A stretch of DNA of 10,236 nt from NCBI RefSeq assembly GCF_003334355.1, contig NZ_QOWP01000056.1, one strand, 5' to 3'. This DNA is from Escherichia coli (GTDB lineage Bacteria; Pseudomonadota; Gammaproteobacteria; Enterobacterales; Enterobacteriaceae). Made by a program: the position numbers and the translations under genes. Below, piece by piece: positions 4,132 to 8,955 of this stretch (positions are counted from its first letter, which is position 1; each line of letters begins with the position of its first letter). The notes beneath the pieces were generated by a model that saw nothing but the letters and a program-made list of their open reading frames with translations, was not told where the DNA came from and did not search any database.

Positions 4132-4207
4132 GCCGATATAGCTCAGTTGGTAGAGCAGCGCATTCGTAATGCGAAGGTCGTAGGTTCGACTCCTATTATC
4201 GGCACCA
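4132..4207 (+). tRNA. thrW: tRNA-Thr (anticodon CGU)
   Basis: 76-nt sequence GCCGATATAGCTCAGTTGGTAGAGCAGCGCATTCGTAATGCGAAGGTCGTAGGTTCGACTCCTATTATCGGCACCA with encoded CCA; anticodon loop carries CGT; matches E. coli thrW. Confidence 0.96.
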
Positions 4208-4372: not shown

Positions 4373-5587
4373 GTGAAACTCAATGCCCGTCAAATAGACA
4401 CAGCCAAGCCAAAAGAGAAGGCTTACAAGCTGGCCGATGGTGGCGGTTTGTATCTCTTGGTAAAACCTAATGGAGGTAAATACTGGCGACTTAAATATCG
4501 TGTAGCTGGTAAAGAGAAGCTATTGGCACTAGGTGTGTATCCTGAGGTTACTCTAGCCGATGCTCGGGCAAAACGTGAAGATGCGAAAAGAGGTATCGCT
4601 GGTGGTATCGATCCGATGGAAGCGAAACGAGAGGAAAAGATTGCCCGGGAAACGCAGTTAAACAACACCTTCAAAGATATTGCCCTTGAGTGGCACAGCA
4701 GCAAATTAAAAAAATGGTCTGCTGGTTATGCTTCAGACATCCTCGAAGCCTTCAACAAAGATGTGTTCCCTTACATTGGCAAAAAACCAATCGCCGAAAT
4801 CAAACCACTTGAACTTCTGAATGTGCTGCGGCGCATTGAGGGGCGCGGTGCTACAGAAAAAGCCAAAAAAGTGAGGCAGCGGTGCGGGGAAGTTTTCCGC
4901 TATGCAATAGTCACTGGTCGCGCAGAGTATAACCCTGCACCAGACCTTACTAGCGCGATGCAAGGCCATGAATCTAATCATTACCCTTTCCTTACAGCCA
5001 AAGAATTACCTGATTTTTTCAAGGCATTGTCCAGTTACTCAGGAAGCGCATTGGTTGTTATGGCGGCTCGTCTACTGATTATCACAGGCTTGCGGACTGG
5101 CGAACTACGTGGCGCATTATGGGATGAAATTGATTTCAACAAGGCTCTCTGGGAGATACCCGCTTCACGTATGAAAATGCGGCGGCCTCATATTGTGCCA
5201 TTGTCTGAGCAGGCTCTTTCGCTTATTGGGAAGATTAGAGAAATAACAGGCAATTACCCTCTTATGTTTCCCGGGCGCAATGATCCAAGGAAAACAATGA
5301 GTGAGGCCAGCATAAACCAAGTGTTTAAGCGCATTGGCTACGCTGGACGTGTAACTGGTCATGGGTTCCGGCACACTATGAGTACGATTTTGCATGAGCA
5401 GGGCTATAACACCGCGTGGATAGAAACGCAGCTCGCTCACGTTGATAAGAACTCAATTCGTGGCACATACAACCATGCGCAATATCTGGATGGAAGGCGG
5501 GAGATGCTTCAATGGTATGCCGACTATATGGATTCTCTCGAGCATGGCGGAAATGTGGTGCATATGGTGTTTGAAAAACACGCATGA
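4373..5587 (+). CDS. Site-specific tyrosine recombinase, P4-type integrase family
   Basis: 404-aa ORF with GTG start, GGAGG 4359-4363. N-terminus KLNARQIDTAKPKEKAYKLADGGGLYLLVKPNGGKYWRLKYR is typical of the P4-family integrase N-terminal arm-binding domain; C-terminal GHGFRHT...RGTYNHAQY carries the H-x-x-R and catalytic Tyr motifs. Sits immediately 3' of a tRNA. Confidence 0.92.
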   Translation: MKLNARQIDTAKPKEKAYKLADGGGLYLLVKPNGGKYWRLKYRVAGKEKLLALGVYPEVTLADARAKREDAKRGIAGGIDPMEAKREEKIARETQLNNTFKDIALEWHSSKLKKWSAGYASDILEAFNKDVFPYIGKKPIAEIKPLELLNVLRRIEGRGATEKAKKVRQRCGEVFRYAIVTGRAEYNPAPDLTSAMQGHESNHYPFLTAKELPDFFKALSSYSGSALVVMAARLLIITGLRTGELRGALWDEIDFNKALWEIPASRMKMRRPHIVPLSEQALSLIGKIREITGNYPLMFPGRNDPRKTMSEASINQVFKRIGYAGRVTGHGFRHTMSTILHEQGYNTAWIETQLAHVDKNSIRGTYNHAQYLDGRREMLQWYADYMDSLEHGGNVVHMVFEKHA

Positions 5588-6238: not shown

Positions 6239-6442
6239 ATGGCTAATTACAATTCATTAATTCGTCTCTCTGAAGTTCAAAGGCGAACTGGTTATAGCAA
6301 AGCATGGATTTATCGTCTTATTAGTCAGGGGAGGTTCCCTAAACAGGTAAAAATTGGAAGTCGGGCAATTGCTTTTGTTGAGTCTGAAATAGATGAATGG
6401 ATTGAGAAGTGTATATTAGAATCTAGAGACGAGGTGGCCTGA
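6239..6442 (+). CDS. alpA: AlpA-family phage regulatory protein (Xis/Vis-like winged-helix DNA-binding protein)
   Basis: 67-aa ORF MANYNSLIRLSEVQRRTGYSKAWIYRLISQGRFPKQVKIGSRAIAFVESEIDEWIEK...; helix-turn-helix segment and E-I-D-E-W motif characteristic of AlpA/Vis family; typical position downstream of a P4-type integrase. Confidence 0.85.
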   Translation: MANYNSLIRLSEVQRRTGYSKAWIYRLISQGRFPKQVKIGSRAIAFVESEIDEWIEKCILESRDEVA

Positions 6443-6885: not shown

Positions 6886-7719
6886 ATGAACATCGAAAAA
6901 AGCAGATTAATTTCTGAGGCCGCCCCTCATCTGAACGCCTCTCTGGGCACAATTAACGGTAATGAATTTGCCGCAATTGTCCCGGTTATTCCTGGTCATA
7001 TCGGTGGGCGTGAAACCAATATTGTTAGCGCAAAAGCGTTACACAAAGCGTTGGGCGTGGGAAAAGACTTCTCTACATGGATCACTGATCGCATCTCTGA
7101 ATATGACTTCACCATTGGGCACGATTACTCAGTCCATAAAACAATTTCCCCAAATTTGGGGAAAAGCCCGAATGGCGCGGCTTACAGCAAGATTAAGCAG
7201 TCTGGCAGACCCGGCAAAGACTATCTGTTAAGTGTCGGAATGGCGAAAGAACTGGCAATGATCGAACGCAATGATCAGGGTCGCGCTATCCGCCGTTATT
7301 TCATCCAGTGCGAGGAAGAATTACAGCGTAGCGTGCCTGAAATCGCCGCCCGCTATCGTCGCCAGCTAAAAGCCCGTATCAGTGCCGCAAACAACTTTAA
7401 GCCAATGTGCGATGCGCTGAATATGGCCCGTGCCGAGATGGGTAAAACGACGCAGCAACACCACTACACAAACGAGAGCAATATGATTTCTCGTATCGTT
7501 CTTGGTGGGCTAACTGCTAAGCAGTGGGCGCGGATAAATGGCTATTCTGGCGAACCTCGCGACCATATGAACGCAGAACAGCTTGAGCACCTCTCATATC
7601 TCGAAAGCACCAATATCACGTTAATTGATATGGGCATGGAATATGAGCAGCGCAAAGGAGAACTCACCCGCCTGTCGCAACGCTGGCTCGCCAAGCGTCT
7701 GGAGGTGGTCAATGTCTAA
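6886..7719 (+). CDS. Phage antirepressor-like protein (AntA/KilAC-type N-terminal domain), 277 aa
   Basis: GGAGA SD 6875-6879. Motifs ...AKALHKALGVGKDFSTWITDRISEYDF... and ...DYLLSVGMAKELAMIERNDQGRAIRRYFIQCEE... resemble the AntA-type antirepressor N-terminal domain as I recall it. Confidence 0.8.
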   Translation: MNIEKSRLISEAAPHLNASLGTINGNEFAAIVPVIPGHIGGRETNIVSAKALHKALGVGKDFSTWITDRISEYDFTIGHDYSVHKTISPNLGKSPNGAAYSKIKQSGRPGKDYLLSVGMAKELAMIERNDQGRAIRRYFIQCEEELQRSVPEIAARYRRQLKARISAANNFKPMCDALNMARAEMGKTTQQHHYTNESNMISRIVLGGLTAKQWARINGYSGEPRDHMNAEQLEHLSYLESTNITLIDMGMEYEQRKGELTRLSQRWLAKRLEVVNV

Positions 7720-7894
7720 GCCAACAGGAACACCACAACCACAAAAACGCTACAAAGATGCCCACGGAGCACTCGTTACTGTCGAAAGCGTGTCTCACAA
7801 CCGAGTGACGTTTTATCGCGACGGGTATCAATCGCCATGCGTACAACCGCTGGCGCGTTTCATGAAGGAGTTCGCGGAGGTTAACAAATGCTAA
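7712..7894 (+). CDS. Small phage-type protein (60 aa); tentatively DUF4222-like
   Basis: ATG 7712 with GGAGGTGG 6 nt upstream, overlapping the upstream stop (ATGTCTAA). Translation [60 protein letters not shown]. The track ORF starts further upstream (7625) inside the preceding gene; the internal start is better supported. Confidence 0.65.
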   Translation: MSKPTGTPQPQKRYKDAHGALVTVESVSHNRVTFYRDGYQSPCVQPLARFMKEFAEVNKC

Positions 7895-8955
7895 CCGTCC
7901 AGAAGAAGACATTTTCACTGGCTGGTATGTCGCCAAAATCCAGCAATATGACGGCAAAGTCAGGCATTAATACAGCAGATACAAGCAAAGTTTATCATTT
8001 GCTGGTGGTCGGAACGGATGCCTTAACCATATCAGAAATCTCGGGCGATGATATTAGCATTGAGAAGGTCAGCGGCTGCGCCAGAAAATTTCTGGTCGTA
8101 GATGATGTCTTCCGCTCGTGTAGTGACTCCACAAAAACATTCGTCCACGCGCGTGACGTTAACGAAATGAGCGCGATGTACTGTGCATCTGGTGCTTCCA
8201 ATAGCGAGTTTTCGGAGTCCATAAAAAAGAGCTTGCCGTTATGCGGCAACACGGTTTATGGTTATAAGGCACCTCATAAAACGGGTGCCGGGATTGGCGT
8301 CCTGGTAAATCGAATGGCGACATATGACGCGCCGAGCGTCTTTTTTTATGTCGTAGGTCTGACTCACCCATTTTTTGGGCGTTGGTGTATAATCCAGCGC
8401 CTTTGTCAATCAATGGTGGCTCAGGCAGGGGCTTCTTCGGAAGCGCCGGTATCCATTCGAGCCGGTTACGCCAACCCTGTCTGGGCTACCACCAGCGAAA
8501 TTGGCGTTTCCGGTGGTAGCGTTACATGCTATCGAATGGAGGCTGCCACATGCTGGCTACTACCCCTACCCAAAAACCGCAATTTATCTGGATTATCGCC
8601 GCAGTTCGCCGCGATTGCCCGACAATTACCGCCAAAATTCATCATATTGCTGCCGAGTCTGAACGCGATGCTCGCCGTTCTCTGGTGCGCGATCACGTCT
8701 GCTTTTTTGCTGGTCGTATCCGCATGGAGGTGGCACATGATTAAAACCTACGATGTGCATATGGATCCCCTCGAACGCACAAGCCAGATCATCACACTGA
8801 CAGAAGTGATTAACGACATTCTGGTGAGCAACTCTCCCTCACGAGACGAAAGACTGAAGGCGTTACTCGCGATATTGGATCTCGCCGTTCGTGACGTTCA
8901 TTTCCTGCTGGAAGGTGGCGAAATGCCAGGAAAAACGGGGGCAACCAATGAATAA
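7888..8955 (+). CDS. Unresolved 355-codon open frame: real N-terminal gene start at 7888; frame stays open through the structured RNA region, the Icd-like gene (other frame) and the 8737 small gene
   Basis: ATG 7888 with GGAGG 7 nt upstream and ATGCTAA overlap with the upstream stop supports initiation. No stop in this frame until 8953-8955. Residues ~176-215 ([35 protein letters not shown]) resemble what databases label ash family protein, but this stretch coincides with strong RNA hairpins. The true C-terminus is unknown. Confidence 0.3.
8326..8347 (+). terminator. Intrinsic-terminator-like element inside the 7888 frame
   Basis: GACGC (8326-8330) / GCGTC (8336-8340) 5-bp GC-rich stem, 5-nt loop, followed by seven T (8341-8347). 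A second T6 run is at 8371-8376. Confidence 0.35.
8388..8393 (+). promoter_or_regulatory. Consensus -10 hexamer TATAAT, TG immediately upstream; possible promoter for the structured RNA/icd leader
   Basis: GTGTATAAT at 8385-8393. No convincing -35 at 17 bp spacing, so weak. Confidence 0.25.
8428..8520 (+). ncRNA. Candidate c4/CI-type antisense regulatory RNA (three consecutive hairpins)
   Basis: HP1 8431-8444: GCTTC/GAAGC stem with TTCG tetraloop. HP2 8445-8466: 6-bp stem (2 wobble) with a 10-nt loop carrying TCCATTCGA (8452-8460). HP3 8485-8520: 9-bp stem CTACCACC.../...GGTGGTAG plus 6-bp inner stem, TTGG loop. The HP2 loop is exactly complementary to TCGAATGGA (8532-8540), which overlaps the GGAGG SD of the Icd-like gene, and 8/9 complementary to 8310-8317. 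Confidence 0.4.
8550..8744 (+). CDS. Host cell division inhibitor Icd-like protein (64 aa)
   Basis: ATG 8550 with GGAGG 8538-8542. Translation [64 protein letters not shown]; the F-x-W-x-x-x-A-V-R-R ... E-x-x-A-R-R ... F-A-x-R pattern matches my recollection of Icd-like proteins of P1/P4-type elements. The track start at 8526 lacks an SD. Confidence 0.6.
   Translation: MLATTPTQKPQFIWIIAAVRRDCPTITAKIHHIAAESERDARRSLVRDHVCFFAGRIRMEVAHD
8737..8955 (+). CDS. Small acidic hypothetical protein (72 aa), independently initiated
   Basis: ATG 8737 with GGAGGTGG at 8727-8734; overlaps the icd-like stop as ATGATTAA. Translation [72 protein letters not shown]. Same frame as the 7888 ORF. Confidence 0.55.
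   Translation: MIKTYDVHMDPLERTSQIITLTEVINDILVSNSPSRDERLKALLAILDLAVRDVHFLLEGGEMPGKTGATNE

Follow-up and report, generated by a model that had tools for sequence, protein, structure and literature searches.

A hairpin and T-run inside an 'ash family protein' reading frame form the terminator of an IsrK/SeqA RNA in a P4-like satellite prophage of Escherichia coli

A terminator-like hairpin followed by seven T residues, located within a long open reading frame (ORF) of Escherichia coli, is the built-in terminator of a known RNA, IsrK/SeqA, in a P4-like satellite prophage. The window (i.e., the whole 10,236-nucleotide stretch of DNA that was analyzed) very probably carries a P4/P1-type RNA immunity module, belonging to a P4-like satellite integrated at tRNA-Thr(CGU) and operating by the mechanism proposed below. 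This immunity system has been described previously, and the module is a further member of it. The evidence comprises RNA family matches, structures, target complementarity, a conserved promoter motif, and a conserved open frame. The original prediction had pointed to the hairpin with its T7, a second T-run (T6), and a TATAAT hexamer, and had read their arrangement as that of an immunity leader. All of these elements are in place inside the ORF at 7888–8955, and the layout holds, as IsrK/SeqA and its terminator are followed by C4/CI, with target boxes on both sides.

The surroundings of the module are those of a P4-like satellite. A tRNA-Thr gene (4132–4207) adjoins the integrase, and RefSeq annotation of a 99.9%-identical sequence includes the integrase, an AlpA-type/HTH regulator, and a TOPRIM/DUF927 primase. 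Integrase, regulator, and a primase of the alpha type are all present, and psu, delta, and sid fall beyond the window. Strains A29, TOK-001, and M10 are examples of E. coli carriers of the island, and E. coli genomes with a match number roughly 2,900. Genes for an AntA/AntB antirepressor (6886–7719) and a DUF4222 protein (7712–7894) are located upstream of the module, and small hypothetical genes and the primase are annotated downstream of its icd-like gene (RefSeq annotation). Protein-family searches with a 72-amino-acid (aa) ORF at 8737–8955 gave no match.

Within the module, the reported hairpin is the 3' end of a match to the Rfam isrK family (RF01394; 67.1 bits versus a gathering score of 50, E = 5.7e-13), which covers model positions 1–77 of 77 and window positions 8269–8346. 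The IsrK/SeqA-like leader RNA (8269–8347, plus strand) consists of hairpin 1 (8269–8288), hairpin 2 (8289–8304), a single-stranded linker, and the terminator, which corresponds to the two 5' hairpins and 3' Rho-independent terminator (a stem, then a U-run) of isrK RNAs. Compensatory changes were found in 5 of the 7 pairs of hairpin 1. The loop of hairpin 2 contains target box b1 (8294–8300), and the linker contains target box a1 (8310–8317). A predicted constitutive sigma-70 promoter of the PLE/PisrK type (8233–8262, plus strand) precedes the leader inside the long ORF, with a −35 element TTGCCG (8233–8238), an 18-nt spacer, a −10 element TATGGT (8257–8262), and a further 6 nt to the predicted start. 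The same arrangement (TTGCnn, 18 nt, TAT(A/G)GT, 6 nt, first isrK base) occurs in P4 and in 64/64 aligned loci, these being the 64 distinct homologous loci on which all pairing, promoter, and frame counts are based. Judging from these motifs, transcription would start at G8269.

The terminator itself (8326–8347, plus strand), equivalent to P4 t1, is composed of GACGC (8326–8330), the loop GCCGA, GCGTC (8336–8340), and T7 (8341–8347). Its stem is short (5 bp). A generic terminator scan lists it, and the number of terminator-like sites found by that scan in the region (6) did not exceed the expectation from shuffled sequences (4.5); its significance hence derives from its position at the 3' end of a highly significant isrK match and not from the generic scan. 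The terminator is kept in 13 divergent loci, in which the outer pair varies in a compensatory manner (GACGC/GCGTC versus CACGC/GCGTG), and is common to P4, SfV, the P1-like phage JL22, Klebsiella phage Kpn74, and others. A lower stem (8317–8354, plus strand; 8317–8324 with 8347–8354) surrounds the hairpin and part of the U-run (−15.8 kcal/mol, z = −3.5). It is paired in 76% of cells of alignment A1 with little covariation, and clearer compensatory variants are present in loci L003, L008, and L010. According to the folding model, the lower stem can form in read-through RNA only. In the Salmonella prophage Gifsy-1, short IsrK RNA ends at its own terminator, which a fraction of the transcripts pass, and Salmonella IsrK has been shown to be made as a short, Hfq-binding RNA (PMC4825925). 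Premature termination and processing, both anticipated by the original prediction, would therefore be expected here by homology with Gifsy-1 IsrK (PMC4825925) and P4 (PMC10111431). IsrK has been identified as a structural homolog of P4 SeqA (PMC4825925), and in P4-like prophages IsrK corresponds to seqA and C4 to CI (PMC3632133).

A C4/CI-type antisense immunity RNA with a tRNA-like cloverleaf (8409–8496, plus strand) was identified 62 nt downstream of the isrK match (Rfam RF01695; 79.5 bits versus a gathering score of 45). Its fold is stable (−47.2 kcal/mol, z = −5.8), and each of its three helices is 100% paired across the 64 sequences, 10 pairs having compensatory changes. C4 exposes two recognition boxes, a' (8453–8460) in a hairpin loop and b' (8468–8474) in a single strand, and these are complementary to targets on both sides of C4 in the same transcript, as in other C4 RNAs. 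Pairing between C4 and the IsrK boxes b1/a1 is present in 100% of 960 cells (64 distinct sequences), with 12 of 15 pairs compensatory. It includes the pairing of the upstream target copy that had been proposed at 8310–8317 with the C4 loop at 8453–8460, which is found in 64/64 loci with compensatory changes. Boxes a2 (8532–8539) and b2 (8501–8507) of the downstream target (8501–8552, plus strand; the SeqC or a2b2 equivalent) likewise pair with C4 a'/b' in 100% of 960 cells, 12 of 15 pairs being compensatory. When the partner was slid as a control, only 33%–47% of cells were paired. The Rfam c4-a1b1 model stayed below threshold in the window (17.9 bits versus a gathering score of 46.7), so the upstream boxes are not assigned to that family. 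Comparative data also indicate that heteroimmune variants arise through the swap of a cassette whose bounds are exactly the outer target boxes.

The downstream target lies over the start of a gene. Box a2 overlaps the Shine-Dalgarno sequence GGAGG (8538–8542) of an Icd/Kil-like cell-division inhibitor gene that begins with ATG at 8550 (8550–8744, plus strand, 64 aa) and matches NCBIfam NF033153 (phage_ICD_like; 71.7 bits versus a cut-off of 25). RefSeq annotates this gene in strain M10. As in P4-type modules, the first translated gene after the leader is kil/icd-like and has its ribosome-binding site under the downstream target.

All 16 related loci that were examined, P4, SfV, and a P1-like phage among them, have isrK followed by C4. 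The P4 leader consists of the PLE promoter, seqA, t1, the cI/CI RNA, seqC, and kil nested in eta, and the parts are in the same order here; in P4 itself (locus L006), isrK is at 1315–1392 and C4 at 1500–1587. P4 and the window further share the promoter architecture, the GACGC..GCGTC terminator with T7, target boxes that flank the antisense RNA, an Icd/Kil-like first translated gene (64 aa in the window, with 65 aa reported for P4 kil by Forti et al. in 1999) whose ribosome-binding site the downstream target covers, a long ORF across the whole module with an 8-nt overlap with the next gene, a primase gene downstream, and an AlpA/Vis-type gene upstream. Differences are also evident. The spacer between terminator and antisense RNA measures 62 nt in the window versus 107 nt in P4, and the loop of its hairpin reads TATAAT in the window, unlike P4. 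Moreover, orf143, the AntA/AntB antirepressor gene, and the DUF4222 gene separate alpA from the module, and the long ORF, which extends to 8955, is not in the icd frame. The specificity boxes differ as well, so that the two elements would be heteroimmune. Statements made here on P4 t1, t4, timm (a Rho-dependent terminator farther downstream), and eta/kil draw in part on secondary summaries (PMC10111431, PMC4825925).

Two other systems offer partial parallels. In immI of P1/P7, as in the window, a C4-family RNA with two recognition boxes faces duplicated targets (a1/b1 and a2/b2), and icd has a covered ribosome-binding site; P1-like phages also have an isrK-like leader upstream of c4 (L010). 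In P1, however, the antirepressor gene ant follows icd and is coupled to it in translation, whereas the AntA/AntB gene of the window is upstream of the module, an order that differs from immI. The Gifsy-1 region IsrK–orf45/STnc1160–anrP (Hershko-Shalev et al. 2016, PMC4825925) has an RNA of the same Rfam isrK family, a terminator with partial read-through, a C4-like RNA immediately downstream, and complementarity between IsrK and the C4 region. Unlike the window, Gifsy-1 is a lambdoid prophage, and its module controls the antirepressor AnrP and, indirectly, AntQ (PMC4825925).

From the experiments on P4, P1, and Gifsy-1, we infer termination, processing, Rho dependence, and translational override for this locus, and propose the following mechanism. 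A constitutive promoter (8233–8262) inside the long ORF would start transcription at approximately 8269, and the first 78 nt would constitute the IsrK/SeqA RNA, ending at the reported hairpin and T7. Part of the transcripts would stop there to give short IsrK RNA, while the rest would read through the spacer into C4/CI. C4 (8409–8496) would then be cut from the read-through RNA by RNase P and 3' trimming, for which P1 and P4 provide precedents. Mature C4 may pair through its two boxes with b2/a2 over the icd/kil-like ribosome-binding site, blocking translation and thereby permitting premature Rho-type termination. Together, the translation block and Rho-type termination would leave the downstream replication genes silent, which would constitute immunity. 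C4 may also pair with b1/a1 directly upstream of the terminator and, like its P4 counterpart, regulate its own synthesis. Termination at P4 t1 is reportedly boosted by CI/C4 pairing just upstream, resulting in C4 autoregulation, and these t1 roles are attributed to Briani et al. 2000 (Mol Microbiol 36:1124). Upon induction, transcription from the alpA-side promoter, with ribosomes on ORF 7888–8955, would pass all of these signals and override them.

The part played by the short IsrK RNA could be of another kind. It may act mainly in trans as an activator or decoy, pairing either with free C4 or with the C4 segment of read-through RNA and turning on icd and downstream genes, instead of serving as a P4-style co-target that strengthens termination. 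Boxes b1/a1 are perfect mimics of b2/a2, so IsrK must compete for C4. Moreover, the best consensus fold returned by RNAalifold for the whole 290-column alignment is a long-range IsrK:C4 pairing within one molecule, corresponding to 'structure A' of PMC4825925. In Gifsy-1, IsrK is a trans activator of translation, and IsrK supplied in trans raised downstream-gene translation >100-fold (PMC4825925). As the short Gifsy-1 RNA activates rather than represses, any trans effect of IsrK in the window could be of either sign. Nonetheless, the context is P4-like (integrase, AlpA-type regulator, icd/kil, and primase) and not a lambdoid antirepressor cassette, and in P4 seqA is required for establishing immunity (PMC3632133). 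We consider a mainly activating or decoy role possible but the less plausible option, and it is not mutually exclusive with the P4-type co-target role.

The 62-nt spacer between IsrK and C4 contains a second RNA structure. A hairpin (8377–8402, plus strand) is formed by GGGCGTTGG (8377–8385) and CCAGCGCCT (8394–8402) around the loop UGUAUAAU (8386–8393), and has a predicted stability of −15.8 kcal/mol (z = −4.75). Since RNAalifold returned the long-range pairing and not this hairpin, it was tested by per-sequence folding and with a named structure. It was found at the same place in 50/50 distinct variants of the segment (mean −13.4 kcal/mol, mean z = −3.6), and 8 of its 9 pairs have changed on both sides. 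Many of the pairs are G·U and workable on the plus strand only, and this covariation argues for constraint at the RNA level. Only 70% of the hairpin cells pair in a fixed register, owing to a one-base shift of the stem register between clades. The hairpin and the T6 run at its 5' side form a 38-nt module (8371–8408) that is absent from short-spacer relatives. For example, the lambdoid relatives SfV, sal3, and an Stx2a phage have a 24-nt spacer that lacks the U-run and hairpin module, and the P1-like spacer is 44 nt long and lacks the hairpin. The U-run and hairpin module is outside the Rfam isrK and C4 models and is unmentioned in PMC4825925, PMC3632133, and PMC10111431.

T6 (8371–8376, plus strand), which had been put forward as a further termination signal, is the U-rich 5' flank of this conserved hairpin and is not a terminator. 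As a six-T run approximately 30 nt past the first terminator, it could be taken for a second intrinsic terminator or attenuator. However, no GC-rich hairpin lies upstream of it, the terminator scan does not list it, and the conserved hairpin comes after the run rather than before it. The run is also only partly conserved across the family: near-invariance across alignment A1 is limited to a TT (columns 103–104), and all members of the TATAAT clade keep T5. A terminating role for T6 is thus very improbable.

The TATAAT hexamer (8388–8393, within GTGTATAAT at 8385–8393) occupies the loop of the spacer hairpin, and the reinitiation of transcription that the original prediction had placed there finds little agreement with the comparative data. 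Under that reading, TATAAT would be a genuine internal sigma-70 promoter with a start approximately 8–10 nt upstream of C4, which would make C4 in this clade independent of read-through at the IsrK terminator. The −10 hexamer is perfect and ends 15 nt before the 5' end of C4. It is invariant in one clade, where TATAATCC is the longest invariant run among 10 distinct spacers with a mean pairwise identity of 67% outside the hexamer; column shuffles, which ignore phylogeny, gave P values of ~0.015 for the run length and 0.003 for those six columns. A single variant, TATGAT, retains T1, A2, and T6 of the hexamer, the upstream T-run is likewise invariant in the clade, and the isrK −10 element of the window's clade is weaker (TATGGT) than that of the P4 type (TATAGT). 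In contrast, the best −35 match in the window is only 2/6 (≤2/6 in every clade member) despite the 6/6 −10, the TG that would make an extended −10 is misplaced (at −14/−13, not −15/−14), and the promoter scan made no call at this site. TATAAT is also no more frequent than expected by chance in the window (5 versus 5.08). Furthermore, the hexamer is the apical loop of a plus-strand stem that covaries with G·U pairs, most homologs with the same hairpin lack it, other clades having loops such as TTCTGTAT, TGCTTATA, TTTCTTTG, and GTGTCATA, and short-spacer relatives keep C4 without the whole module. Deletion of the isrK promoter in Salmonella abolishes the C4-like RNA STnc1160 (PMC4825925). Hence, the TATAAT at 8388–8393 is probably not a promoter, and we regard an independent start site for C4 as rather unlikely. 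Conservation of the TATAAT loop and T-run exceeds that of the remaining spacer in one clade, which a reading of the hexamer as a loop only leaves unexplained. We tentatively suggest, as a lesser possibility, that in this clade the same bases may serve both as the loop of a read-through structure in RNA and as a −35-less promoter or sigma-70-dependent pause site in DNA, which would supply C4 independently of autoregulation at the IsrK terminator. A kissing interaction between the loop (UAUAAU) and AUUAU at the 5' end of C4 was also considered and dropped, as members with the TATAAT loop differ in their C4 5' ends and no correlation was apparent.

The promoter, IsrK, terminator, spacer hairpin, C4, and target boxes are all spanned by the 355-aa ORF at 7888–8955 (plus strand), annotated by RefSeq as 'ash family protein', which overlaps both the stop of the upstream DUF4222 gene and the beginning of the gene that follows at 8948. 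This ORF is the counterpart of P4 eta. The frame is open through the module in 64/64 loci, while the other two frames are closed in 64/64 and shuffled sequences remain open in 3.5% of cases. The eta ORF of P4 contains both CI and seqA, and termination is prevented when eta is translated from the late promoter (PMC10111431). The original prediction had called such signals unusual inside a genuine coding sequence; this is true, and the eta-like nature of the frame already accounts for it, as P4 eta translation from an upstream promoter overrides the signals. The ATG at 8550 is in frame with the long ORF in 46/64 loci and out of frame in 18/64, including the window. As the long ORF is thus out of frame with icd, unlike P4 eta and kil, the nested-gene logic of P4 is not exactly transferable.

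The same frame could suggest that the region merely encodes a protein (a genuine 355-aa protein of the 'Ash family' or Bro network) in which the hairpin, T-runs, and TATAAT are incidental strings of codons. Identical sequence is annotated as a whole as 'ash family protein' in RefSeq, the Pfam Phage_ASH match is strong (E = 5.7e-30), and the frame is consistently open. However, the Phage_ASH and PHROG matches are limited to residues ~106–233, exactly the RNA module, and protein-family searches with the N-terminal 123 aa and C-terminal 72 aa gave no match. Homologous long ORFs have no sequence relationship in their N-terminal parts, and N-terminal substitutions relative to a 93%-identical relative are not biased toward third positions (10, 6, and 10 at codon positions 1, 2, and 3). 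Massive RNA covariation, including G·U pairs, and the encoding of Icd by the same DNA in another frame also argue against a purely protein-coding region, which we consider highly improbable. The historical P4 'cI protein' ORF was reportedly shown by Ghisotti et al. in 1992 to act as an RNA.

The main value of these results lies in annotation. Hundreds of E. coli genomes contain the 355-aa 'ash family protein' ORF, a frame that carries an RNA immunity switch, and PGAP gives identical DNA two annotations that are incompatible with each other. The comparative data provide a clean map of the specificity boxes and leave the current understanding of this type of immunity unchanged. The spacer hairpin and its clade-specific TATAAT loop present a small question for the field of P4 or PICI regulation; if the dual role suggested above holds, the U-run and hairpin would add a fourth, hitherto undescribed element to the P4-type immunity leader.

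The hairpin GACGC-GCCGA-GCGTC with its U7 run (8326–8347, plus strand) is exactly the 3' end of a full-length Rfam isrK match at 8269–8346 (67.1 bits; gathering score 50). IsrK is a leader RNA of the P4 SeqA type, and the match is followed at 8409–8496 by a full-length match to the C4 antisense RNA (79.5 bits; gathering score 45), the counterpart of P4 CI. A check of the window sequence found every string of the original prediction where it had been placed. The hairpin and U-run were listed by a terminator scan, yet the total for that scan was not above shuffles (6 versus 4.5). The 5-bp stem and U7 are kept from P4 to a Klebsiella phage, and the outer pair shows compensatory change, with CACGC/GCGTG replacing GACGC/GCGTC in three loci. 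A lower stem that is possible in read-through RNA (8317–8324 with 8347–8354; −15.8 kcal/mol, z = −3.5) encloses the terminator; its support is moderate, with 76% of cells paired and little covariation in an alignment of 64 distinct homologous loci. In P4, a Rho-independent terminator (t1) reportedly lies between the PLE promoter and cI; its efficiency is said to depend on CI RNA and seqA, and t1 to autoregulate CI.

The alignment begins with isrK, ends where icd starts, and covers the 62-nt-spacer class, its members being drawn from the loci (about 120 further ones) that a pattern scan of viral contigs returned. All 64 loci, and P4, carry directly 5' of isrK a motif consisting of TTGCnn, 18 nt, TAT(A/G)GT, 6 nt, and the first isrK base. 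In the window, this conserved motif gives a putative plus-strand promoter with a −35 at 8233–8238, a −10 at 8257–8262, and a predicted start at G8269; its counterparts would be PisrK in Gifsy-1 and the constitutive PLE promoter in P4. The −35 is overlapped by a perfect inverted repeat (TTGCCG-ttatg-CGGCAA, 8223–8249 region) that is preceded by A6 and, read on the minus strand, was listed by the terminator scan as a hairpin and T-run terminator. Inverted repeats also surround the −35 in other clades (e.g., CCCCGGC..GCCGGGG), in a different register. The 8223–8249 repeat may act as an operator, or else terminate antisense transcripts.

The arrangement is known from related systems. In Gifsy-1, IsrK occurs in two forms, a short RNA that stops at a Rho-independent terminator and an mRNA that reads through it; its middle pairs with the downstream orf45/STnc1160 region, the C4-like STnc1160 is lost upon deletion of the isrK promoter, and the authors describe IsrK as structurally homologous to P4 SeqA (Hershko-Shalev et al. 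2016, PMC4825925). For P4-like prophages, IsrK has been equated with seqA and C4 with CI (Barquist et al. 2013, PMC3632133). We found isrK directly 5' of C4, at a distance of 10 to 110 nt, in all 16 divergent relatives compared (P4, SfV, Salmonella phage sal3, an Stx2a phage, a P1-like phage, a Klebsiella phage, and ten E. coli chromosomal loci). P1-like phages (JL22 [locus L010, 1018–1228], RCS47, and D6) also carry a full isrK-family leader and terminator directly 5' of c4, and IsrK/SeqA is thus common to the P1 immI, P4, and lambdoid versions.

The C4 recognition boxes a' (8453–8460, in a hairpin loop) and b' (8468–8474, single stranded) face the IsrK target boxes a1 (8310–8317) and b1 (8294–8300), all on the plus strand; 960 of 960 cells in the alignment are paired, with both-side changes in 12 of 15 pairs, and pairing drops to 37–47% when the partner is slid by 1–3 columns. 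The upstream target copy proposed at 8310–8317 is therefore exactly box a1, which pairs with a' across the alignment. The downstream boxes b2 (8501–8507) and a2 (8532–8539) pair with C4 equally well, and a2 overlaps the Shine-Dalgarno sequence GGAGG (8538–8542) of the Icd-like gene (ATG 8550; NCBIfam 71.7 bits, cut-off 25). The isrK and C4 matches and the boxes bear out the reading of this region as an immunity leader whose transcripts end early and are processed, but not reinitiation at TATAAT (8388–8393), which has no −35 (2/6) and no properly placed TGn, is not called by a promoter scan, and lies in the loop of an RNA hairpin. E. coli SCU-111 carries two tandem isrK-C4 modules about 450 nt apart (locus L014, 456–731 and 902–1090), with different specificity boxes.

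Spacers of the 62- to 68-nt classes contain a U-rich run and then a hairpin. The window's version joins 8377–8385 to 8394–8402 on the plus strand around the loop UGUAUAAU (8386–8393), with a fold of −15.8 kcal/mol (z = −4.75). A hairpin occurs at the same place in all 50 distinct versions of the segment (mean −13.4 kcal/mol, mean z = −3.6; z below −1.5 in 49 of 50), and both-side changes were found in 8 of 9 pairs, with many G.U pairs that are valid in plus-strand RNA only. Because the hexamer falls within this conserved hairpin, the proposed consensus −10 is its apical loop, and the T6 run (8371–8376) is its 5' flank. The suggestion that T6 is a second terminator was rejected, as no hairpin precedes it. 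The module as a whole (8371–8408) is covered by neither the isrK nor the C4 model of Rfam, and the IsrK and P4 papers cited here do not mention it; possible roles are those of processing site, folding insulator, or stabiliser. A longer counterpart of the hairpin is present in P4 and in the 68- and 80-nt spacer classes, and no spacer hairpin was found in the P1-like 44-nt spacer. The 24-nt spacers (SfV, sal3, Stx2a phage, and the close relative L003) are too short for the module and lack it. Relative to the window, L003 cleanly lacks the 38 nt of 8371–8408; a further 1-nt deletion, in its terminator loop, brings the loss to 13 codons of the ORF and so keeps the reading frame.

An internal promoter or pause site at TATAAT is an unlikely alternative to an apical loop, kept here because the hexamer run and T5 are invariant within one clade. 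Among the 10 distinct spacers of that clade, which average 67% identity outside the hexamer, the longest stretch without variation is TATAATCC; column shuffles that take no account of phylogeny give P ~0.015, and 0.003 when the six columns are considered. The one hexamer variant reads TATGAT. The clade also has a weaker isrK −10 (TATGGT, versus TATAGT in P4-type loci), but the correlation is incomplete, since four clade relatives have TATGGT without the TATAAT loop. Loops of other clades read TTCTGTAT, TGCTTATA, TTTCTTTG, GTGTCATA, and others, and TATAAT occurs in the window about as often as expected (5 versus 5.08). We regard the conserved spacer hairpin with a clade-specific TATAAT loop as a minor variant worth a note.

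These signals do lie within an open frame, as originally described, but what was called unusual is there by design in P4-type immunity and has been described before. In P4, CI and seqA lie inside eta; transcripts from the internal constitutive promoter are quickly terminated and processed to CI, and eta is translated in full only when transcription comes from the late promoter upstream, with coupling to the alpA homologue, and this translation prevents termination (PMC10111431). For the counterpart here (ORF 7888–8955), no stop interrupts the frame anywhere in the module in any of the 64 distinct loci; both other frames are closed in all 64, and only 3.5% of shuffled sequences are open. In every annotated relative, the ORF overlaps the stop of the preceding gene and ends 8 nt past the start of the next. 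Pfam Phage_ASH (E = 5.7e-30) and PHROG matches are restricted to residues ~106–233, where the RNA module is translated; neither the N-terminal 123 aa nor the last 72 aa match any protein family. Phage_ASH thus amounts to a translated IsrK-C4 module (residues 124–232). N-termini are unrelated among different relatives, and N-terminal substitutions between the window and L003 are evenly spread over codon positions (10, 6, and 10). These observations on the ORF all fit the published picture of P4. Whereas kil is in frame within eta, the icd ATG here is out of the long-ORF frame, as in 17 other loci (nested in frame in P4 and 46/64); the long ORF crosses icd (8550–8744, 195 nt open in two frames) into a 72-aa ORF (8737–8955) that matches no protein family. 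This, too, is a minor variant worth a note. Where the DNA is the same or 99.9% identical, PGAP annotations differ (NZ_CP028746, NZ_CP010200), the region appearing as a 355-aa "ash family protein" (7888–8955) or as a partial "ash" pseudogene (8314–8523) and a 64-aa Icd-like protein (8550–8744), all on the plus strand.

The module belongs to a P4-like satellite integrated at thrW. The window starts with phoE (minus strand), followed by proB and proA and then tRNA-Thr(CGU) (4132–4207), after which the island begins. RefSeq annotation of 99.9–100% identical sequence labels its genes as a tyrosine integrase (4373–5587), a minus-strand hypothetical gene, an AlpA-type HTH regulator (6239–6442), a hypothetical gene, an AntA/AntB antirepressor (6886–7719), a DUF4222 protein (7712–7894), and, 3' of the ash/Icd region, small hypothetical genes and a TOPRIM/DUF927 primase, all but the first hypothetical gene on the plus strand. 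The P1 antirepressor is 3' of icd, whereas AntA/AntB here is 5' of the RNA module, in the alpA-side operon; hence, C4 would be unable to control it in the P1 manner.

Sequences like 8200–8760 were found in 2,909 of 5,426 complete E. coli genomes. Between the window and L002, a relative with near-identical flanks, divergence (~40%) is confined to ~8293–8537 (L002 1594–1838), a segment bounded by b1 and a2 in which all three box sets have changed together. The segment has the look of a cassette for immunity specificity that recombination has exchanged, and the restriction of divergence to it suggests that heteroimmune types arise by cassette exchange.
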